From NCBI GenBank assembly GCA_030656575.1, contig JAUSPO010000030.1, positions 63,298 through 127,297 of the forward strand: 64,000 nucleotides of DNA. The letters run 5' to 3'. Position 1 is the stretch's first letter, and each line of letters begins with the position of its first letter. The position numbers and the translations under genes were made by a program. The notes under the pieces are model-generated. The model did not search any database. It was given only the letters and a program-made list of their open reading frames with translations, and was not told the DNA's origin. Positions 3,070 to 63,319 of this stretch are shown here, piece after piece. Source of the stretch: Bacillota bacterium. GTDB taxonomy: Bacteria; Bacillota; Dethiobacteria; DTU022; UBA8154.

Positions 3070-3105
3070 AACGTACCCTCCTGTTCTATTCAGGTATTCA
3101 GAAGC

Positions 3106-3136
3106 CAGTAGTCAGTAGTCAGTAGTCAGTAGTCAG
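3106..3136. repeat. perfect tandem heptanucleotide repeat (CAGTAGT)x4 plus CAG in the 5' leader of the minus-strand operon
   Basis: Direct read of the sequence: cagtagtcagtagtcagtagtcagtagtcag. Confidence 0.9.
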
Positions 3137-3194
3137 AATACTTAAGTTCTCTCATTATTCCAGATTTCGGGCACTCCGACTCCGGCTCCAAAGA

Positions 3195-3360
3195 CACGGG
3201 GACGGTTCCATCGTCTTCCCATTAGCTTAGGTATGGGGACACACCTCATTTTTCAAGTGGTATGGGGACACACCTCATTTTTCAAGTGGTATGGGGACAC
3301 ACCTCATTCAGAGGAATGTCCCCTATGGAATGTCCCCTATGGAATGTCCTCAAGTCCTTC
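3195..3360. repeat. degenerate, internally triplicated copy of the palindromic repeat element (hairpin GGGGACACACCTC...GAGGAATGTCCCC)
   Basis: cacggggacggttccatcgtcttccc matches the element at 55656-55680. It is followed by three copies of a 29-nt unit (gtatggggacacacctcatttttcaagtg) and two or three copies of gaatgtcccctatg. Confidence 0.6.
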
Positions 3361-3487
3361 GCTGCACTAAGCCCGTGTAGTTACTATTATTTTATCATAT
3401 CTCAATATAAGCTGAAAGTTAGATTGCCTAAAAGCTCTCTTTTGGGATAGAATTAAAGTTACAAATTAGAAAATGGTGGAGTGAATA

Positions 3488-5676: not shown

Positions 5677-7074
5677 ATGAAAGGAGAAAATACAATGTCA
5701 AACGATTTAATTGTGAAGCGAAGGCTACTTAAAGTTGAAAAAGTCATTGGTGAAGATACTGTTCGCAGGACTGTGGCAGCAGATGTGGTCCTGCCATTTA
5801 AAGTATTAAAAGTTTTTGATGTCATTGCCCATGTTATGGCCGTTGAAACAGCAGTTCAGGAAGGTGGAGTGCGCGTTGCCGGTGTTGTTCATAAACAGCT
5901 TTTTGTCGTCGATCGAGGAGATATAGTACGGCATGTGGAGGAGGACATTCCTTTTGAGTTCCTTGTTCCTGTTGAAGGGGTTCTGCCTGGAATGAACGTT
6001 CAGACAAATATCCGTATTCTCGAAATAGATAAAACCTTGGTTGATCCCCAAACAGTAAGACAGGTTATTGTTTTAGAGATTTTTGTTAAGGTAACTGTTA
6101 CAAAACAGATTGAAGTAGTTGTGGATGTACGCGGCAAGGATATTATCGTCAAAAAAGAGTTACTAAAGGTTGACAGCGTGGTTGGAGAAGATACTGTCAG
6201 TCAGGTTATTACACCGGTGGCGACACTACCCATAGTTGCCAGGAAAATTTTCCGAATCATACCGTCAGTACGCAATGTAACGGCAGAAGTTCGAACTGAT
6301 ACGGTAATCGTGCGGGGAGTAATTCATAAGCAGGTCTTCCTTGTCGATGAAGGCGATCTGGTACGCCATGTGTCAGAAGATATTCCTTTTACAAATACAA
6401 TAGCTATACCTGGTGCCAGGCCAGGGATGGATGTGCAATTTGATGTGAGTGTTTTCCTGGAAGAATTTAAGTTAATAGATCCTCCCAGCCGAATGCTGCG
6501 CCAGGTTTTGACAATAGAAGCTTTTGTTAAAGTAACTGAAACGCTGCAGATCGAAGTTGTCATCGATGTCAAGGGTCGGAATATAGTCGTAAAAAGAAAA
6601 CTTCTGAAAGTTGAGTCCGTCGTCGTGGATGTCCTCCAGCAGGAGACGGTGCGAGCAGTTGTAAGATTGCCTGTCCAGGCCATTAAGATATTTGATATCA
6701 TGGCCAGCATTGTCAACCTTCAGGCGGAAGCCCGTTTTGACCAGGTAGTTGTGCGGGGGATACTGCACAAGCAGCTCTTCTTCGTTGACCCCGGCGGCCT
6801 GGTACGCCACGAAAGGGAGGATATACCCTTTACCTTTGTGAAATCGGCACCGGGTGCCCGTCCGGGGATGAATGTACAGGTGCGTGCCCGTATTATTGGT
6901 GATATTCGGGCCAGGATAATTGATAACAAGGGTTTGGAAATAGAGCAGGTTGCGGTTATTGAAATCTTTGCAAAAGTTACCCGTACGGTTCAGCTGGAAG
7001 TGGTGGTTGATGTAAAAAGAGTTTTACCTCCACCGAAGCCGTCAAATGACCCACAGCCTTCACCAGAAAGCTAA
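5677..7074 (+). CDS. DUF3794 (SPOCS-type) repeat protein, three internal repeats of about 150 aa; putative spore coat/sporulation protein
   Basis: Internal repeats begin LLKVEKVIGEDTV / LLKVDSVVGEDTV / LLKVESVVVDVLQ, each with HKQ(L/V)F.VD.GD.VRHV and PGARPGM(N/D)VQ. The gene is a paralog of the next one. Confidence 0.55.
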   Translation: MKGENTMSNDLIVKRRLLKVEKVIGEDTVRRTVAADVVLPFKVLKVFDVIAHVMAVETAVQEGGVRVAGVVHKQLFVVDRGDIVRHVEEDIPFEFLVPVEGVLPGMNVQTNIRILEIDKTLVDPQTVRQVIVLEIFVKVTVTKQIEVVVDVRGKDIIVKKELLKVDSVVGEDTVSQVITPVATLPIVARKIFRIIPSVRNVTAEVRTDTVIVRGVIHKQVFLVDEGDLVRHVSEDIPFTNTIAIPGARPGMDVQFDVSVFLEEFKLIDPPSRMLRQVLTIEAFVKVTETLQIEVVIDVKGRNIVVKRKLLKVESVVVDVLQQETVRAVVRLPVQAIKIFDIMASIVNLQAEARFDQVVVRGILHKQLFFVDPGGLVRHEREDIPFTFVKSAPGARPGMNVQVRARIIGDIRARIIDNKGLEIEQVAVIEIFAKVTRTVQLEVVVDVKRVLPPPKPSNDPQPSPES

Positions 7075-7149
7075 GGAGAAAAAGGTGATTATATTCATAG
7101 CTTAATCCCTATGATTATCTGAAACCTTTTATGTTTTCTTAATACCCCT

Positions 7150-7190
7150 GTAACACTACAGGGGTATCTTGTATATATTATAGTGAACCT
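7150..7190 (+). promoter_or_regulatory. candidate promoter for the second DUF3794 gene; includes the perfect palindrome CCCCTGTAACACTACAGGGG
   Basis: acccctgtaacactacaggggtatcttgtatatattatagtg. The TGTAACA to TATATA spacing (17 nt) is the same as at 5606-5650. The palindrome could also terminate the upstream gene. Confidence 0.3.
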
Positions 7191-7219
7191 TAAAAGCATA
7201 ATTGAAAGGAGGGTAAAAA

Positions 7220-8923
7220 ATGTCTGACCTTTTAGTCAAAAGACAATTACTTAAAGTTGATCGGGTAATTGGTGAGGATACGGTTCGGGAAACAGTTGAA
7301 GCCACCATTACACTGCCTTTTTCCATCATCAAAGTATTTGATGTAATCGCCAGCGTAACCGACATTGAAACTGAAACGAAGGAAGGAGGCGTTATGGTCT
7401 CCGGGGTTATTCACAAGCAGCTTTTTGTTGTGGATAAGGGAGATGTGGTACGCCATGTTCCTGAAGACGTTCCCTTTAGCGTCTTTGTAGATATTCCGGG
7501 GACGACCAATAATATGGACGCCCATGTGGATGTGCGCATCCTTGCCCTGGACACAGAAGTGCTAGAATACGGTAAGAAAGTGCGGCAAACCATTGTTCTG
7601 GAGATATTTGTCAAAGTTACCACCATCCAACAGATCGAAGTAGTTATCGATGTTCTTGGTAAGGATATCATCGTCAAAAAAGAACTGCTTAAGGTAGATA
7701 GTGTGGTCGGAGAGGACACTGCAGTCTTTACTCTTACCCCTACCGCAACTCTGCCCATAACGGCCAAGAAAATCTTTCGCATCATCCCTTCAGTGCGTGA
7801 TGTAAGCGCAGAGGTAAAGGAGAACACCGTGATTGTGAAGGGTGTCATCCACAAGCAGATTTTCCTCGTTGATGAAGGGGATCTGGTGCGCCATGTCGCT
7901 GAGGATGTTCCCTTTACCCGGACGGTCGATATTCCCGGTGCCAGGCCTGGTATGGATGTGCAGGTGAGAGTCAGGGTAGTACTTGAAGATTTTCAGTTAG
8001 TTAATCCTCCCAGCCGTCAGCTGCGCCAGACCCTTGTTGTGGAAGCCTTTGTGAAGGTTACGGAGGTACTTCAGATCGAAGTAGTGGTTGATGTGCAGGG
8101 TAGGGGCATTGAGGTAATCAAAAAGCTTCTCAAAGTGGAAAGCGTGGTTGTAGATGTGCGTCAGAAAGAGACGCTCCGCTCGACTGTAACCCTGCCGCAG
8201 AAGCCTACCAAGATTCTCGAGATTGTGGCCGAAATTGTCAACCTGAGGGCGGAGGCCCGTACCGACCAGGTGATCGTGAAGGGTATTCTCCATAAACAGA
8301 TCTTCTTTGTGGAAGAAGCAGGAGACCTGCTGCGCCACTTCCGGGAAGATGTGCCCTTTACCTTTGTAAAGACGGCCAGAGGGGCACGTCCGGGTATGAA
8401 CGTGCAGGTCCGGGCCAGTATTGTCGGAGAGATCATAACCAGGCTTAACGGCAGAGAACTGGAACAGACCGCCGTGATCGATATCTTTGCGAAAGTCACC
8501 CGCACGGTCCAACTTGAAGTATTAGTCGATGTAAGAAGAGTAGCGCCAGTTCCGCCAGTTCCGCCAGTTCCGCCGATTCCGCCGTTCCCGCCGAAGCCGC
8601 CACCGCTGGCGAAGAAGTACATTGTGCAGAAGGGTGATACTCTCTGGAAAATCGCCAAGCGCTTTGGGGTATCACTGGATGCCCTTATCAGGGCAAATCC
8701 ACAGATCCAGAATCCCGATCTGATTTTCCCGGGTGATGTTGTCTTTATTCCCGAAGTACATGTGCCAAAGCCTCCCACAAAGAGGTATGTAGTCCAAAAG
8801 GGAGATACTCTCTTTCTCATTGCCAAGCGCTTTGGGGTATCACTGGATGCTCTTATCAGGGCCAATCCACAGATTGCGAATCCTAACCTGATTTTCCCTG
8901 GAGATATAGTATTTATTCCTTAA
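7220..8923 (+). CDS. DUF3794 repeat protein with a Pro-rich linker and two C-terminal LysM domains (SipL/SpoVID-like morphogenetic coat protein candidate)
   Basis: Four DUF3794-like repeats, then PVPPVPPVPPIPPFPPKPPP, then two LysM units (YIVQKGDTLWKIAKRFGVSLDALIRANPQI.NP.LIFPGD.VFIP). Confidence 0.6.
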   Translation: MSDLLVKRQLLKVDRVIGEDTVRETVEATITLPFSIIKVFDVIASVTDIETETKEGGVMVSGVIHKQLFVVDKGDVVRHVPEDVPFSVFVDIPGTTNNMDAHVDVRILALDTEVLEYGKKVRQTIVLEIFVKVTTIQQIEVVIDVLGKDIIVKKELLKVDSVVGEDTAVFTLTPTATLPITAKKIFRIIPSVRDVSAEVKENTVIVKGVIHKQIFLVDEGDLVRHVAEDVPFTRTVDIPGARPGMDVQVRVRVVLEDFQLVNPPSRQLRQTLVVEAFVKVTEVLQIEVVVDVQGRGIEVIKKLLKVESVVVDVRQKETLRSTVTLPQKPTKILEIVAEIVNLRAEARTDQVIVKGILHKQIFFVEEAGDLLRHFREDVPFTFVKTARGARPGMNVQVRASIVGEIITRLNGRELEQTAVIDIFAKVTRTVQLEVLVDVRRVAPVPPVPPVPPIPPFPPKPPPLAKKYIVQKGDTLWKIAKRFGVSLDALIRANPQIQNPDLIFPGDVVFIPEVHVPKPPTKRYVVQKGDTLFLIAKRFGVSLDALIRANPQIANPNLIFPGDIVFIP

Positions 8924-9950: not shown

Positions 9951-9956
9951 CTTAAG

Positions 9957-10042
9957 CGGTGCCATGGGGACGGTTCGAGCGTCACCGTAGCGCAGCGAAG
10001 GACTTGGGGACATTCCTCTAAAAGAGGTGTGTCCCCTTACCA
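9957..10042 (+). repeat. left part of the palindromic repeat element (copy A), ending in hairpin GGGGACATTCCTC-taaaa-GAGGTGTGTCCCC then TTACCA; serves as the 5' exon of the intron
   Basis: Nearly identical (reverse complement) to 55689-55776. Confidence 0.7.
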
Positions 10043-11963
10043 GTGCGCCACGCATGGCGATTAACTTGGTGGTGAAAGTCCACTATGGGGGTCTGTAGTT
10101 ACCAACCATTAGCCAAGAGCAAGGGTGTCCATCGTGAGGTGGAATCTGAAGGAAGCTGGAGGCAAAATTCCGACCCAAGGAACACGAACATCATCAGGCA
10201 TAAGGTATGGGATGAGTTTGCTGGACAAAACGAAATCCAATAACTACACGGACATACCACTGTAAATGATGTGGGTACATGGAATGAAAGTGAATCGTCT
10301 TACCGTGGGAGGTCTCATGGACGTGAGGAGATGGAATTCGAATCACGGTTGAAACAAGATTTATCATGAGAAGTCAGCAGATACCATAGTACTCGATGAA
10401 GTCTACGTCGTCGAGGAAGGGTTGAACCTCAGGGGGTGAAAGTAAATGAATGTTACCGAGACAGAAGGAAAGTACAGCCAACCTCAGAGGGCTTCCGAAG
10501 GAAGCAGCAACGAGGGCTTACCGCAAAAGGATAGTGCGGAACACGAAAGATATGCGGGAGCGTACAATTCTGGGAGGATAACGGAAAACAACCTCACCGA
10601 TGCAAACAAGCCGAAGGAAAGATTACTTGAGGAAATATTGGACAATCAGAATATGAACAACGCATTCAAACGTGTCAAGTCCAATAAAGGAGCTCACGGA
10701 GTCGATGGGATGGGAGTAGATGAACTTCTACAATATCTCAAAGAAAACGGAGACCAACTCAGGCAATCAATTCTGGATGGGAAATACCATCCTAACCCCG
10801 TCAGAAGGGTAGAGATACCCAAAGAAAACGGGAAGAAAAGAAAATTGGGAATACCTACGGTAGTGGACCGAGTAATACAGCAGGCAATAGCCCAAGTGCT
10901 TACTCCCATCTTCGAGAAGCAGTTTTCAGACAACAGCTACGGGTTTCGACCCGGGCGGAGTGCTCACGATGCAATCAGGAAATGTCAGGACAACATAGAC
11001 GAAGGATACAAATATGTTGTTGACATGGACTTGGAAAAGTACTTCGACACAGTTAACCAAAGTAAGCTGGCAGAAGTATTATCCAGGACGATAAAAGATG
11101 GGCGCGTAATATCGCTCATCCATAAATATCTGAGAGCAGGAGTAATAGTCAAGCACAGTTTCGAAGAAACGGAAATCGGCGTACCACAGGGTGGACCACT
11201 CAGTCCAATTCTTAGCAACATCATGCTTAACGAACTGGACAAGGAACTCGAAAGAAGGGAACACAGGTTTGTCCGCTTCGCAGATGATATAGTCGTCTTC
11301 TGCAAAAGCAGTAGAAGTGCGAAACGCACACTTGAAAACATACTACCCTTCATCGAGAAGAAGCTATTCCTTAAAGTGAACAGAGAGAAAACGGTGGTTG
11401 ACTACGTAGGAAAAGTGAAATTTCTTGGGCTCTCGTTCTATCGATACAGAGGTAAAACGAGGGTCAGAATTCATCCCAAATCAATTGCAAAGATGAGAAA
11501 TAAAGTAAGAGAGCTTACTTCCAGAAGCAATGGAATGGGCAACACAGCCAGAGCTGAAAAGCTCAGACGCTATATTATGGGGTGGATTAACTACTTCAAG
11601 ATAGCGGACATGAAGAAGCTGATGACCATTACGGACGAATGGATGAGAAGGCGTATCCGCATGATTTACTGGAAGCAATGGAAACGAGTGAAGACAAGAG
11701 TTAAAATGCTAAGGTCACTCGGCATCCATGAACAGAAAGCATGGGAATATGCAAACACAAGAAAGGGCTACTGGAGAATCTCCAATAGCCCAATCATGTC
11801 CACATCCCTTGGAAACAATATCATCAAAGGATTTGGATACCTATTCTTTTCTGAGTACTATCGGCGAGTTACAGCGTAAACTGAGGAACCGCCGTGTACC
11901 GAACGGTACGCACGGTGGTGTGGGAGGTCGGCTACTCAAATAATGGGTAGCCTCCTACCCGAT
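10043..11963 (+). mobile_element. group II intron, 1921 nt, hairpin-targeting with an endonuclease-less RT (bacterial class C-like behaviour)
   Basis: 5' end is GTGCG and the 3' end is ...CCCGAT. A domain V-like hairpin (ccgtgtaccgaacggtacgcacgg) lies at about 11890-11915. The intron encodes the RT at 10446-11879. Removing 10043-11963 recreates the junction ccccttacca|tagatagtgggaag seen in the empty copy at 55.6 kb. Confidence 0.8.
10446..11879 (+). CDS. group II intron reverse transcriptase/maturase (no HNH endonuclease domain)
   Basis: RT blocks FRPGRSAHDA, VVDMDLEKYFDTV, GVPQGGPLSPILSNI and the YADD box FADDIVVF, followed by a maturase X domain. The C-terminus lacks Cys/His En motifs. 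Confidence 0.9.
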   Translation: MNVTETEGKYSQPQRASEGSSNEGLPQKDSAEHERYAGAYNSGRITENNLTDANKPKERLLEEILDNQNMNNAFKRVKSNKGAHGVDGMGVDELLQYLKENGDQLRQSILDGKYHPNPVRRVEIPKENGKKRKLGIPTVVDRVIQQAIAQVLTPIFEKQFSDNSYGFRPGRSAHDAIRKCQDNIDEGYKYVVDMDLEKYFDTVNQSKLAEVLSRTIKDGRVISLIHKYLRAGVIVKHSFEETEIGVPQGGPLSPILSNIMLNELDKELERREHRFVRFADDIVVFCKSSRSAKRTLENILPFIEKKLFLKVNREKTVVDYVGKVKFLGLSFYRYRGKTRVRIHPKSIAKMRNKVRELTSRSNGMGNTARAEKLRRYIMGWINYFKIADMKKLMTITDEWMRRRIRMIYWKQWKRVKTRVKMLRSLGIHEQKAWEYANTRKGYWRISNSPIMSTSLGNNIIKGFGYLFFSEYYRRVTA

Positions 11964-12012
11964 TAGATAGTGGGAAGACGATGGAATCGTCCCCATGGCT
12001 TAGCGATGGTGA
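11964..12012 (+). repeat. right part of repeat element copy A (3' exon side), carrying the terminal inverted repeat gaatcgtccccatggc
   Basis: tagatagtgggaagacgatggaatcgtccccatggcttagc equals the reverse complement of 55648-55688. Confidence 0.7.
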
Positions 12013-12042
12013 CGTAGGGGATGTCAGCTTTAGCTTAACAAG

Positions 12043-31601: not shown

Positions 31602-32237
31602 ATGCAGGTAATATCAGAAAGAAAAACTGCTGAATCGCAAATCATTGCCAAAATTGATTTTGGACCCCGTTACGCAGATCCCAAAAAGGGATTAAATACG
31701 ACAATGCCATTTTTAAACCATATGATAGAACATGTGATCGCGCGGGGGGAGTTTAATCTGGAGGTTAATGTTGAATTAAAAGACTTTTACCTCTTTCATG
31801 TAGTTTGTGAGGATATAGGGATCACGATTGGTAAAGCTATGAAAGAATATGTTGAATCAAGATTGGATGATGGGATCTCAGGATATGGTTCTGCATTTGC
31901 AATTATTGATGAGGCCCTTTCTCAGTCAGTGATTAGCTTTGAAAACAGGGCTTATCTTGATTTTTACCATCCTGAAGTTGTAATTCCTACTCAGACAGAA
32001 AATACTAATTCGGAAGATCTGAGGACTTTTTTTGAGGGCTTTGTGCAAGGCGCTTCCTGTACGCTGCACTTAAATATTCTCAAAGGAATCAATGGACACC
32101 ACATTTGGGAAGCAGCATTCCGTTCCTTTGGAGAGGCACTTTCCAAAGCATTGAGTTTAAGAGAATGGAGAAAAGGGATCACTTCAGGTGTTGCCGGCCC
32201 CATAAAGACTAAGATTTCTAAAAGTGATAATAGGTAA
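31602..32237 (+). CDS. hisB: imidazoleglycerol-phosphate dehydratase
   Basis: 211 aa; IGPD-like metal motifs (LNHMIEHV, INGHHIWEAAFRSFGEAL). Confidence 0.65.
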   Translation: MQVISERKTAESQIIAKIDFGPRYADPKKGLNTTMPFLNHMIEHVIARGEFNLEVNVELKDFYLFHVVCEDIGITIGKAMKEYVESRLDDGISGYGSAFAIIDEALSQSVISFENRAYLDFYHPEVVIPTQTENTNSEDLRTFFEGFVQGASCTLHLNILKGINGHHIWEAAFRSFGEALSKALSLREWRKGITSGVAGPIKTKISKSDNR

Positions 32238-32262
32238 GGGGACACACCTCATCGAGGAATGT
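32227..32262. repeat. solo copy of the repeat hairpin GGGGACACACCTC-atc-GAGGAATGTCCCC, directly after the hisB stop
   Basis: Direct read; same hairpin as in the 3.3-kb, 10.0-kb and 55.7-kb copies. Confidence 0.55.
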
Positions 32263-32291
32263 CCCCTATGGAATGCCTAATGGATGTCCCT

Positions 32292-33500
32292 ATGCTTCGA
32301 GTCTGGAGGAAATATAATTTGTCTAAAGAATCAGAGCATCCCAAAAAAGTTATCTTCGATATGGATGGCGTCATTTTAAGTGAAGATTGCTACTGGAATA
32401 CTGCCGCCCTTGTGGTCTGGGAATTGCTTTACAGCGATCGGTATCTGGGCAGGCCCCCCGAAGCAGGCCTCCCAACCTTTAAAACCGATCTTTCTCCTCA
32501 GGAAATTTCGGCAGTCAGACGGGTTGTCTTCCAGGATGAGCAGGTAATTTCCTTTTTTAAAAAACGTGCAGTTAATTCCAACTGGGATCTGGCTTTTTAT
32601 ACTTTTGTTTTTCAATTAACCTTGCTTTTTCAAGAGATAAGCGGCAGGGATTTAGCAGGTGGAGTTCAGGTTGAAGATCATGGGATTATGCTGAAGCATC
32701 TCTCTCACCTTTCCAGCCTTTTATCATCGCGGGATGATTGGAGTCCTTCATTTGCTGCAGTCATAGAGAACTGGGCAGGTGAGGCCAGGTGGAAGGATTT
32801 AATGGGAAAACTTTCTTTACAGGTGCCCGGAAGTTTTAAGGGGCTTGTGGAGAATTCTTACAAAGCCTCCTCTCCTTTATGGGAAGAAGTAAGGGACATT
32901 TTTCAGGAGTGGTATTTCGGAGAGGAACAATATAGGGAATTATTCAGCAGGGAGCCTGGCTCTCCCGGGAAAAAGGGGCTTATGCATGAGGAAGAACCTC
33001 TGCTTCCTGTAAGCAAAGTGAAAGATACCCTGCGCCAGCTGAAAGAGAAGGGCATGGTCCTGGGAATAGCAACAGGACGGCCCTATAACGAACTTAACCT
33101 TCCTCTTCAGAAAATGAATATCTGGGAATCATTCGATAAAAAATCTGTAGTAACCTTCAACGATGTGCAGAATGCGGAACAGGCATCCAGCCATAACTCA
33201 GATAATATTTCCCTGGGCAAGCCTCATCCCTTTTCCTTTCTAAAGGCTTACTGGGGGGACAGGTTTAGCGACGATGATCTGCTTTCTTCCACATTTCCCC
33301 GCATAGAACCGGGAAAATGCTGGGCTGTGGGGGACTCCATGGCTGATCTCCTTGCCGCAAAAAAATCGGGGGCTTCCTTTATTGGGGTTTTAACAGGACT
33401 CAGAGGCGCAGTAGATAAAAGTGCCTTCGAAAAAGAGGGCGCCACAGCAGTGCTGCCGGATGTAACTTTTCTTCCACGTTTTTTTGAGGACAATAAATAA
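32292..33500 (+). CDS. HAD-superfamily hydrolase with a large cap insertion (candidate histidinol-phosphatase given its his-gene context)
   Basis: Motif I FDMDGVIL near the proposed N-terminus, a GIATGRP-containing segment, and GDSMADLLAAKKSGA. The start is moved to the ATG at 32292 because the upstream part of the track ORF is a translation of the repeat hairpin. Confidence 0.55.
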   Translation: MLRVWRKYNLSKESEHPKKVIFDMDGVILSEDCYWNTAALVVWELLYSDRYLGRPPEAGLPTFKTDLSPQEISAVRRVVFQDEQVISFFKKRAVNSNWDLAFYTFVFQLTLLFQEISGRDLAGGVQVEDHGIMLKHLSHLSSLLSSRDDWSPSFAAVIENWAGEARWKDLMGKLSLQVPGSFKGLVENSYKASSPLWEEVRDIFQEWYFGEEQYRELFSREPGSPGKKGLMHEEEPLLPVSKVKDTLRQLKEKGMVLGIATGRPYNELNLPLQKMNIWESFDKKSVVTFNDVQNAEQASSHNSDNISLGKPHPFSFLKAYWGDRFSDDDLLSSTFPRIEPGKCWAVGDSMADLLAAKKSGASFIGVLTGLRGAVDKSAFEKEGATAVLPDVTFLPRFFEDNK

Positions 33501-41610: not shown

Positions 41611-41784
41611 GGCAACCTCCGGTTCTCTATCGGACAGTTCGTGACCAAAGTGGGATTTAGGAGATCATTTACTGCAGATTTCTGGATTAATTATAGCTAT
41701 ATTTTGCCATCTAAGTCAACTGAGTTAGAAAACTAGGTATGACACGGTTTAGTTGTTTTATTTAATAATTCCCCTATTTAAAAA

Positions 41785-41814
41785 GTTGTCAATAACCCCG
41801 TCCCCTTGTCAACC
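41785..41814. promoter_or_regulatory. conserved 28-30-bp motif GTTGTCAATAACCCCGTCCCCTTGTCAAC (copy 1 of 2)
   Basis: 27/28 identical to 47778-47806. On the minus strand it reads TTGACA-N15-TTGACA, lying between the hemolysin-III stop and about 175 bp upstream of the thioesterase start. Confidence 0.3.
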
Positions 41815-47668: not shown

Positions 47669-47777
47669 TATCTAACCAACTCACTTTAATAAATAGTAAT
47701 TAAATCAAATTGATATTATTTTGTTTAATCGTAAAAATAATATGCCTATGATATGGGATATTAATCTTTAGGAAATG

Positions 47778-47806
47778 TTGTCAATAACCCCGTCCCCTTG
47801 GCAACT
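47778..47806. promoter_or_regulatory. conserved motif GTTGTCAATAACCCCGTCCCCTTGGCAAC (copy 2 of 2)
   Basis: See 41785-41814. It lies about 110 bp upstream of the Fn3 pseudogene start on the minus strand. Confidence 0.3.
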
Positions 47807-55546: not shown

Positions 55547-55647
55547 ACTTTCTTTATAGTTAAGCTGAAGCATCCAGGCTGCGGAAACCGTGGCCTTTTT
55601 TTGTAGCTGTTATCACTACATCGAAAGATTGCTTGTTTCGTTACATC

Positions 55648-55776
55648 GCTAAGCCACGGGGACGGTTCCATCGTCTTCCCACTATCTATGGTAAGGGGAC
55701 ACACCTCTTTTAGAGGAATGTCCCCAAGTCCTCCGCTGCGCTGCGGTGACGCTCGAACCGTCCCCATGGCACCGCT
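55648..55776. repeat. intact, intron-free copy (copy B) of the roughly 130-bp palindromic repeat element, inverted relative to copy A; an unoccupied group II intron homing site
   Basis: Terminal inverted repeats ccacggggacggttc / gaaccgtccccatgg, with the internal hairpin ggggacacacctc-tttta-gaggaatgtcccc. The reverse complement matches 9957-10042 plus 11964-12012 contiguously. Confidence 0.75.
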
Positions 55777-55904
55777 TATCTCTTTTCCCCTTGTTTCTCC
55801 TACGTTTGAGTCTTTTTTCTTTTACTGTTTATGTGGTATAATATTCTGATAGGCTGCTTGTAGTTAATAAAATTTTAGAGGAAAAGGGAAGGGTTTGGGG
55901 AACC

Positions 55905-62590: not shown

Positions 62591-63319
62591 ATGCAGGAAA
62601 AAGAAAATGAAGGTTTTGCAAAGCCAATCATAAAAAAAGAGCTCATTGTCAGCCTGCCCGGCAGGGAGTTAACGTTTCATATTGCCGCAGATATTGAAGC
62701 CCTCATTACCGATGTTAATGACGAGGATAAGGTTCCCTGTTGGGCTGATGTATGGCCGGCGTCTTACGGGATGGCTTATTTTATCTGGGATACTGTTGAT
62801 TTTAGCCCTGGGGAGAAAGTGCTGGAATTGGGGGCCGGGATGGGCCTTCCGGGAATAGTATCCGCCCTCAAGGGAGCAAAGCTTACTCTTTCCGATTTCA
62901 ATCCCACGGCTCTGGAGATGGCCGGACAAAATGCCCGTCTAAATGGTATTGAAGCAGTCCTCCTGCAGGAGGACTGGAGAGTGTTTGCCTCTAAGGAGAA
63001 ATATGATTATATTTTAGCTTCCGATATTTGTTATGATCCAAAGCTAAACTATTTTTTAGGGAAGATCTTTTTAAATAATTTAAAGCCTGGGGGAAAAGTG
63101 ATAATTTCCCATCACGATCGCAAAGCGACTAAAATGTTTATAAAAGAGTGGTTTGAACAAAATAGCGTTAATTTTCAACAAGAAACATATATGCGGCAAG
63201 TTGTACTGGCAGATGCACTTCTTCCCCGCTACGATATCGTTATTAATATCTTACAGTCCTCCCCGGCGAAGAGAGTACGGAGAGAAGCCTCTATGGTTAA
63301 GCAGTTTAATACTATGTAG
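62591..63319 (+). CDS. class I SAM-dependent methyltransferase (protein-lysine MTase-like)
   Basis: VLELGAGMGLPGI motif I and LSDFN. Confidence 0.65.
   Translation: MQEKENEGFAKPIIKKELIVSLPGRELTFHIAADIEALITDVNDEDKVPCWADVWPASYGMAYFIWDTVDFSPGEKVLELGAGMGLPGIVSALKGAKLTLSDFNPTALEMAGQNARLNGIEAVLLQEDWRVFASKEKYDYILASDICYDPKLNYFLGKIFLNNLKPGGKVIISHHDRKATKMFIKEWFEQNSVNFQQETYMRQVVLADALLPRYDIVINILQSSPAKRVRREASMVKQFNTM

Follow-up and report, generated by a model that had tools for sequence, protein, structure and literature searches.

What is the palindromic sequence that recurs between the genes of this bacterium, and how did it come to be there more than once? The stretch of DNA analysed here, referred to as the window, comprises 64,000 nt of contig JAUSPO010000030.1 of a Bacillota bacterium (positions 63,298 to 127,297; G+C content 44%). 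It contains four copies of a non-coding repeat, and the intact one lies at 55644-55778, ahead of uvrB. A first-pass annotation, made from the sequence alone, had taken the copies for a family resembling miniature inverted-repeat transposable elements (MITEs) or repetitive extragenic palindromes (REPs), with a structured small RNA or a transcription attenuator as other possible functions. We found that the full element is a composite of two nested elements, that copies are gained and lost over short time scales, and that the terminal inverted repeats (TIRs) of the larger element match those flanking the genes of TIRYT transposases. The explanation that fits best, with a probability of about 0.6, is that the copies are non-autonomous, non-coding REP-class repeats of the 'TIR-repeat' kind which are mobilised in trans by a TIRYT.

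A composite of two nested elements

The intact copy (copy 4, 55644-55778, + strand) consists of an outer element with a hairpin unit nested in it, and its 135 nt are those that it has in common with copy 2. The TIRs of the outer element lie on the + strand at 55653-55675 (GCCACGGGGACGGTTCCATCGTC) and 55748-55770 (GACGCTCGAACCGTCCCCATGGC, which in reverse complement reads GCCATGGGGACGGTTCGAGCGTC). According to the repeat finder they are imperfect, with 87% complementarity, and measure 23 nt where about 15 bp had first been estimated. The hairpin unit at 55689-55727 (+) reads TGGTAA, then the hairpin GGGGACACACCTC-TTTTA-GAGGAATGTCCCC (55695-55725), then AA. The sole open reading frame (ORF) overlapping this copy, 111 aa long, antisense and running into the neighbouring gene, has no support as a gene, in agreement with the earlier statement that the repeat encodes no protein.

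Copy 2 lies on the - strand in two parts. The repeat finder matched 9953-10042, which holds the hairpin (10006-10036) and the right TIR, to the reverse complement of 55689-55778 (90 nt, 98%), and 11964-12008, which holds the left TIR, to the reverse complement of 55644-55688 (45 nt, 96%). Since both parts match copy 4, copy 2 is a complete 135-nt element split by 10043-11963 at the point where, in copy 4, 55688 meets 55689. The intervening DNA is a 1921-nt group IIC intron on the + strand, for which the two parts are the 5' and 3' exons, and the description of this copy as intron-occupied was right.

Copy 1 (3191-3369, +) has a left TIR (3193-3215), three left arms (at 3235, 3264 and 3293), a hairpin (3293-3323) and right arms, and lacks the right TIR. 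The hairpin is followed by two additional right arms and a AAGTCCTTCGCTGCAC segment. The program TRF found a 29-nt unit in 2.7 copies at 3230-3308, which is the triplication noted before, and on the right side a 14-nt unit in 2.6 copies at 3313-3349, both 100% identical; through these tandem repeats the copy has three arms on each side. Copy 3 (32232-32290, +) is a lone hairpin unit, in which GGTAA flanks the hairpin (32238-32266) on the left and two right half-sites follow it in degenerate form.

The four copies thus lie within a few bases of where the first-pass annotation had placed them, and they hold nearly all that the window has of the motif. There are 11 matches to the half-site GGGGACAYWCCTC (at most 1 mismatch) where 0.16 would be expected; none of 100 shuffles reached 11, and 10 of the 11 matches fall inside the four copies. 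The TIR pattern CCAYGGGGACGGTTC (at most 2 mismatches) has 6 matches where 0.13 would be expected. In all four copies the hairpin arms carry a GGGGWSAS box, reading GGGGACAC.

The two components were also found apart. The outer element is a palindromic sequence of about 95 nt with the core GGGGACGGTTC in its TIRs, and the hairpin unit, 45-70 nt long and of the form AAGGTAA-GGGGACACACCTC-loop-GAGGAATGTCCCC-AA, occupies its apex. A locus of Dethiobacter sp. (L036:3935-4015; L numbers denote loci outside the window) has an outer element with both TIRs and no inner hairpin, and copy 3 is a hairpin unit standing alone without outer TIRs. Homologous composite elements were present at L110, L063, L057/L070, L022 and L076, and the difference between left and right TIR (CCATCGTC versus CGAGCGTC) is also kept in L036, L110 and L022. 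Hence the element that had been described as a single unit is intact over 135 nt in copy 4 and yet made of two nested elements.

The nesting extends to other repeats. Two Desulfotomaculia metagenome-assembled genomes (MAGs) contain a 190-nt repeat with a small hairpin, and in 2 of its 6 copies the loop of that hairpin holds one more hairpin unit, about 70 nt long; in one copy a left arm and a right arm were gained together. Several hairpins lie 8-10 nt past canonical terminators, and copy 4 is likewise behind a terminator. From five such cases we infer that the hairpin unit behaves as an independent module landing in or behind existing stem-loops. As an additional observation, the Desulfotomaculia repeat itself (L083, L087, L015, L084, L103, L004), which reads TTTATCTTCGCACAGCCTGTAAGACCCCGCCCTC ... 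CCACCTGAACCAAGTCTTCTTTAT, always contains one GGGGACAC hairpin and sometimes a second.

Copies are gained and lost among close relatives

The relatives of its UvrB and HisB assign the window to the class Dethiobacteria. The sites of copies 2, 3 and 4 were compared with orthologous sites in related genomes. Upstream of uvrB, the block carrying copy 4 is absent from L116 and L117 (95% UvrB identity) and from L118 (92%), and the window is about 175 nt longer there than its relatives. The inserted block (about 55607-55783) is bordered by TTAT on both sides and starts right past the stretch that follows the T-run of a complete intrinsic terminator of the upstream gene, placed at 55576-55604 (+) by the terminator scan; copy 4 thus sits between this terminator and the uvrB promoter.

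Copy 3, between hisB and a HAD gene, is absent from the same junction in L204 and L205 (94% HisB identity) and in L206. In the 94% relatives the junction has 23 nt with a small hairpin, CACTT..AAGTG, versus a 71-nt hairpin unit in the window. It had been noticed before that the hairpin abuts the hisB stop and overlaps the annotated HAD start: the GGTAA flank of copy 3 supplies the hisB stop codon (32235-32237), and the listed HAD start, ATG at 32259, falls within the hairpin. The real HAD start is probably a TTG that follows GGAGG near 32304-32320 (TTG near 32318) and is conserved in relatives. The C-terminus of HisB reads ...SDNR in the window and ...GDTT or ...NDTEK in relatives. We also observed that L206 and the JAGVAS01 loci (L025, L051, L052, L056, L088, L096) come from a MAG titled 'Desulfovibrio sp. 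isolate DeMMO6_36'; it has the Dethiobacteria gene order hisD-hisB-HAD-...-secA with a HisB 80% identical, and the organism label looks wrong.

Copy 2 lies between convergent genes for a CAP-domain and a PK_C-like protein. In L208 these genes are separated by a 6-nt spacer with a single CTTAA. In the window the insert is 2078 nt with CTTAA on both sides (9951-9955 and 12034-12038), the inserted DNA continuing to about 12033, and L209 has kept both CTTAA together with just 14 nt of one element end. At L207, a Logan contig (SRR13727525) with a 100% identical CAP gene, the short-read contig ends within the TIR of copy 2, from which it follows that the repeat breaks short-read assemblies.

Because copies are missing from orthologous sites in relatives of 92-95% identity, they are gained and lost over short time scales. 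Two or three of the four copies are absent from such sites, which bears out the earlier view of a non-autonomous mobile family of MITE- or REP-like kind. Target-site duplications had been proposed as a check: over three empty-site comparisons with diverged flanks, direct repeats were seen at copy 2 (CTTAA/TTAA) and copy 4 (TTAT), and none was visible at copies 1 and 3. The ends of the insertions are not cleanly defined, as they carry on one side 20-33 nt of unshared sequence.

The hairpin in public genomes

Species-representative genomes were scanned with the pattern GGGGACANNCCTC-N2-10-GAGGNNTGTCCCC, which has 22 specified bases, and at least 124 hairpins at at least 115 loci were obtained, against about 0.3 chance matches in the whole genome collection by a back-of-envelope estimate. 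The family therefore reaches well past this assembly. Among the matches listed, to which the following proportions, hosts and gene contexts refer, the hairpins were mostly in anaerobic Bacillota. About three quarters have the exact mismatch pattern of the window (CA/AA) and lie in genomes of 28-59% G+C. By label, their hosts are Desulfotomaculia, Syntrophomonadaceae, Dethiobacter, Peptococcaceae and other Clostridia, and a few CA/AA matches are in MAGs labelled 'delta proteobacterium', the database labels being taken as given. Variant hairpins, which differ in the central bases, make up multi-copy families in genomes of 59-71% G+C labelled Lysobacterales, Steroidobacter, Ferrovaceae, Acidobacteriota and Coriobacteriales. 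Many MAGs carry several hairpin loci each, and the arms also form arrays. Genomes rich in the hairpin include Dethiobacter SURF_39, JAGVAS01, Desulfotomaculum BL5_bin.2 and Ca. Formimonas warabiya DCMF.

When all ORFs of 100 aa or more were clustered across the 115 listed loci, no gene was consistently next to the hairpins, which is consistent with action in trans. The recurring families nearby are large housekeeping ones, namely ABC ATPases, GGDEF/EAL proteins, sigma-54 activators, DnaJ and FeoB. By heuristic gene calls, 45 hairpins were in tandem, 13 in convergent and 4 in divergent contexts, and in the tandem contexts 25 were co-directional with the flanking ORFs versus 20 antisense.

By BLAST, the 135-nt element has no match among plasmids and phages. 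In IMG/VR, the hairpin pattern gave 3 matches in all and the outer-TIR pattern gave chance matches in high-GC coding DNA and nothing else, and a full-text literature search with the hairpin sequences returned no relevant paper. Two resemblances of the TIR were considered and set aside. A tRNA-like reading of GGTTCGAG has a stem and loop register that misfits a T-arm, and ARAGORN finds no tRNA; a likeness to the inverted repeats of the Tn3 family (GGGG...ACGCTAAG) has the motif order reversed.

The outer TIRs match those of TIRYT genes

TIRYTs are Y1 transposases resembling RAYTs (REP-associated tyrosine transposases), with flanking inverted repeats that share the motif GGGGWSAS (GGGG[AT][CG]A[CG]) and are not GTAG REPs. 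Their TIR repeat families are single, dimeric or clustered, and occur in S. maltophilia, Acidobacteria and others (PMC3733652, PMC6006769). The group equals the TnpA-REP-like subclass 2.1, with a C-terminal helix-turn-helix (Quentin et al. 2018, PMC6006769; Di Nocera et al. 2013, PMC3733652). The hairpin arms of our family, GGGGACAC, fit the published motif.

Published TIRYT sequences were used as queries on the hairpin loci, IMG/VR and PLSDB. Three intact Y1_Tnp genes from IMG/VR and PLSDB, all from organisms other than that of the window, have flanking TIRs that align with the outer TIR of the window. The flanking repeat reads CATGACACGGGGACGTTTCGTTTGTCAT at L211, AGGACAAGGGGACAGGTTTATCGTCC at L210 (the other end, in reverse complement, GGGACAGGTTCGCCGTCC) and AATCATTAGGGACGGTTCTTTTTGA at L239 (Acetoanaerobium noterae). 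The core GGGACGGTTC of the left TIR of the window is identical in the L239 TIR, the two TIRs of L210 differ from one another in a manner comparable to the outer element, and tandem partial boxes beside the TIRs of L210 and L239 resemble the arrays described above. The L210 and L211 proteins match Pfam Y1_Tnp, and reach 74-78 bits with the NCBIfam model 'REP-associated tyrosine transposase', whose cutoff is 80. In addition, the variant hairpin families share clades with TIRYTs, namely Lysobacterales and Acidobacteriota. The best reading of these alignments is that the outer element represents essentially the two ends of a TIRYT element, or TIRtron, minus the gene, and is thus a miniature TIRtron. 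It had been suggested that the family would fall if its copies were fragments of a longer known insertion sequence (IS); a resemblance to TIRtron ends does exist, and it is what is expected of a miniature derivative.

Several observations weigh against a TIRYT as the mover. The sequence of the outer TIR, GGGGACGG, departs from GGGGWSAS at one position. No TIRYT gene was found in the 64-kb window or in about 1.3 Mb of hairpin loci, apart from a 5'-truncated TIRYT-like remnant with in-frame stops (SGHLFQNRYKSILCEEEPYLLELVRYIHPNPLR, L081:7263-7571) about 300 nt downstream of a hairpin (7014-7047), and one such Y1 neighbour is not significant, with about 0.16 expected by chance on a rough estimate. 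Searches of the window and the hairpin loci for HUH/Y1 motifs gave nothing, and a second IMG/VR scan with Bacillota-type TIRYTs gave nothing new. The insertion ends are ill-defined, with 20-33 nt of unshared sequence on one side. IS200-type elements favour the lagging-strand template, and the hairpins have no strand bias relative to genes (25 versus 20 among the matches listed). We know of no experimental demonstration of TIRYT activity on such repeats. Finally, short direct repeats flank the insert at both outer-element loci with an empty site (CTTAA/TTAA at copy 2, TTAT at copy 4). Y1 chemistry of the IS200/IS605 type makes no target-site duplications, and if the direct repeats are such duplications they fit a staggered cut of the DDE type better.

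An alternative is a classical MITE. The outer element would then have arisen by deletion from an IS that encodes a DDE transposase, and would move by cut-and-paste or copy-paste with a staggered cut, taking the hairpin unit along as a passenger. Beyond the TIRs at both ends, such an origin would account for direct repeats at the borders where empty sites exist (CTTAA at copy 2 versus a single one in L208; TTAT at copy 4) and for L209, which resembles an excision footprint with both repeats and a few terminal bases kept. We consider a classical MITE unlikely, however. The direct repeats differ in length and sequence between loci, with 4 additional bases past the second CTTAA; one terminus, comprising the 20-33 nt of unshared sequence, is unconserved between copies; and a non-exhaustive search found no IS with such TIRs in the hairpin loci, plasmids or phages. 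Moreover, the TIRs agree with the repeats that flank Y1 (TIRYT) genes, and the hairpin unit spreads alone without TIRs, as in copy 3.

Structure and constraint of the hairpin

The consensus of the hairpin unit from 90 instances is aAAGG(T/A)AA, then GGGGACACACCTC-loop-GAGGAATGTCCCC, then AA. The hairpin is an imperfect palindrome sited between genes, with a stem of 13-14 bp and two central mismatches, which are C.A and A.A on one strand and U.G and U.U on the opposite one. Both strands of the 146-nt region fold far better than shuffles, at -63.8 kcal/mol (z -5.9) and -76.7 kcal/mol (z -8.4). The expectation that the palindrome forms on both strands was thus borne out, whereas full palindromy fails at the two mismatches. 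The conserved flanks (AAGGTAA ... AA) are non-complementary, with 25-37% Watson-Crick pairing, so the hairpin unit has distinct left and right ends. Surplus left arms are confined to the left and surplus right arms to the right, and their counts correlate (Spearman 0.42, p 4e-6). The loop-closing pair covaries, being C-G in 34, T-A in 32, G-C in 12 and A-T in 4 of 126. The foot of the hairpin is GGGG, preceded by AAGGTAA, and differs from the canonical REP foot GT[AG]G.

Stable folding on both strands and covariation of the loop-closing pair would also be expected if the host kept the repeat as a functional RNA or DNA structure, whether to stabilise 3' ends, to terminate or attenuate transcription, to act as a small RNA or to bind a nucleoid protein, with repetition arising from selection and not from mobility. 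The location of the hairpins mainly between tandem or convergent genes among the matches listed (45 and 13, with 4 divergent) points the same way, as does the group IIC intron, which treated the hairpin as a terminator-like stem-loop, and E. coli REPs are reported to have such secondary roles. Several lines of evidence make this quite improbable. Orientation relative to the upstream gene shows no bias (25 versus 20 among the matches listed), and the stem lacks a U-tract, with 2 T in the 9 nt past it, contrary to an intrinsic terminator; the terminator scan at copy 4 finds only the separate stem at 55576-55596 and not the repeat hairpin. Copy 4, between a complete terminator and the uvrB promoter, is probably little transcribed, and copy 1 sits between divergent genes in a divergent promoter region. 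The window has no Rfam match at gathering score except the intron, and matches at E up to 10 are at chance level alone. The same sites are without copies in relatives of 92-95% identity, and sequence, beyond structure, is conserved across classes. Given the orientation, the missing U-tract and Rfam, the small RNA and attenuator functions proposed in the first-pass annotation have no support beyond the stable fold.

The group IIC intron in copy 2

The intron in copy 2 (10043-11963, +; boundaries taken from the restored element) is inserted 6 nt past the hairpin at 10006-10036. It matches the Rfam family group-II-D1D4-3 at 145.6 bits, and D1D4-1 also matches. The ORF of its intron-encoded protein (IEP, 10446-11879, +) has RVT_1 and GIIM domains and no others, and its best match in the PDB is the GsI-IIC reverse transcriptase (E 3e-129; LtrA 2e-44). 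The ORF opens with about 58 codons (10446-10620) that precede its alignment to IIC reverse transcriptases of solved structure, and given these leading codons the true start codon may be further downstream.

The hairpins had been proposed as potential intron homing sites, and in the strong form of this idea they would be dedicated sites that the group IIC intron spreads or co-evolves with. The intron does occupy one of the four copies, a few nucleotides past the hairpin, so the hairpin is usable as a landing site. Group IIC introns are reported to insert after terminator stem-loops (Toor et al. 2006, PMC1702495). Among relatives of the intron, 80 metagenomic IEPs at 59-82% identity with mapped 5' ends provided 43 distinct 5' exons, of which 41 are ordinary terminators with a hairpin and a T-run and none contains the GGGGACA..CCTC hairpin. 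Nor does a reverse-transcriptase gene cluster occur near the 124 hairpins listed. A dedicated homing site is therefore largely refuted and very improbable; the intron is a later, secondary event, in which its ribonucleoprotein used the repeat hairpin as a surrogate terminator, with no special relationship between the two. Separately, a related IIC intron at L127 (about 860-899) lies behind a terminator with the stem AAGGGGACG...CGTCCCCTT, the sole GGGGAC box among the 43 5' exons, which is probably a coincidence.

A possible route of movement

If the repeats are mobilised by a TIRYT, a single-copy enzyme encoded elsewhere in the genome would recognise GGGG-headed hairpins in single-stranded DNA and would cut and rejoin them, whereby units would be copied or moved and occasionally lost. 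New copies would favour sites in or just past stem-loop DNA, such as a terminator, a small hairpin between genes or the apex of an older copy, and this would build up the left arms and right arms into Russian-doll arrays.

A bolder proposal, which we hold as tentative and on balance doubtful, is that the GGGGACAC unit may be an autonomous-looking 'hairpin-into-hairpin' module. It would target sites in or behind DNA stem-loops, its own apices included, through an uncharacterised HUH reaction of the TIRYT type, and would have spread horizontally almost unchanged across bacterial classes and, as variants, across phyla. If this were true, TIRYTs would get a defined substrate, and the propagation of very small nested repeats, similar to the small dispersed repeats (SDRs) of Nostoc, would be explained.

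REP-like repeats are abundant and their mode of movement is mostly unexplained, and TIRYT transposases are without a demonstrated substrate. The present family offers a defined 31-nt hairpin with conserved asymmetric mismatches, nested arrays that record the history of insertion, fresh insertions and losses among genomes related at 92-95%, and a sequence that ties it directly to the ends of TIRYT genes, and for these reasons it is a convenient system for in vitro tests of TIRYTs. There are practical effects as well: the repeats have broken an assembly (L207), provided hisB with its stop codon, misled the calling of the HAD start and served as landing pads for a group IIC intron.

Other repeats in the window

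Some further repeats were observed near the copies or elsewhere in the window. A tandem repeat of the heptamer GTAGTCA (6.1 copies, 3094-3136) lies about 55 nt upstream of copy 1, and heptamers resembling GGAGTCA (L036:3890-3925) directly adjoin the hairpin-less outer element of Dethiobacter. Two copies of AAA(A/T)GTTGTCAATAACCCCGTCCCCTTG(T/G)CAAC, 94% identical, were found at 41781-41813 and 47773-47805, one directly past a gene end and the other in a divergent intergenic region. Their opposite strand reads TTGACAAGGGGACGGGGTTATTGACAAC, with the outer TIR core GGGGACGG, and they could be solo boxes or regulatory sites. Adjacent ORFs of 465 and 567 aa at 5677-8923 are made of internal repeats of about 435-441 nt with 60-79% identity and probably encode a repeat-domain surface protein.

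Comparison with known systems

Compared with the group IIC introns described in PMC1702495, the intron in copy 2 is alike in having an IEP nearest to the GsI-IIC reverse transcriptase, in its position a few nucleotides past a stem-loop and in having relatives past terminators; it differs in that the stem-loop, which lacks a T-run, is part of a repeat element.

The repeats resemble the REPs, BIMEs (bacterial interspersed mosaic elements) and REPINs of E. coli and Pseudomonas, with their RAYTs, in being short extragenic imperfect palindromes that form mosaics of modules mainly past genes, and in that one would expect the mobilising enzyme to be encoded by a single, unlinked gene. Inverted doublets like those of REPINs also occur among the variants from Lysobacterales and Steroidobacter. 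In contrast to these systems, the head of the hairpin is GGGG and not GT[AG]G, the arrays in Bacillota are nested (left arms, loop, right arms) and not alternating doublets, and the sequence is conserved far past the genus, whereas REPs are usually species-specific.

The SDRs of Nostoc, reportedly described by Elhai and colleagues in 2008, are said to be mobile units of 21-27 nt nested in hairpin-forming repeats whose stems they extend. They are alike in being very small nested mobile units and differ in their sequences and in the phylum that hosts them; we know of no transposase for SDRs and of no link between them and TIRYTs.

In sequence the repeats resemble the TIR repeats of TIRYTs (PMC3733652, PMC6006769). 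Both have the GGGGWSAS box, single or clustered repeats and partial self-complementarity; the outer TIR, through its core GGGACGGTTC, can be aligned to the repeats beside the Y1_Tnp genes of L210, L211 and L239; and the hosts overlap in Lysobacterales, Acidobacteria and Desulforudis, the last among the published TIRYTs. The present family is known here from repeats alone, the flanked TIRYT genes being those of other organisms. It further differs in that the two TIRs sit together, with no gene between them, in a miniature of about 95 nt, that a smaller hairpin unit nests in the outer element and in itself, and that a near-identical 31-nt hairpin is common to several classes of Bacillota. The nesting and this near-identity of the hairpin across classes are what is unusual in the family.

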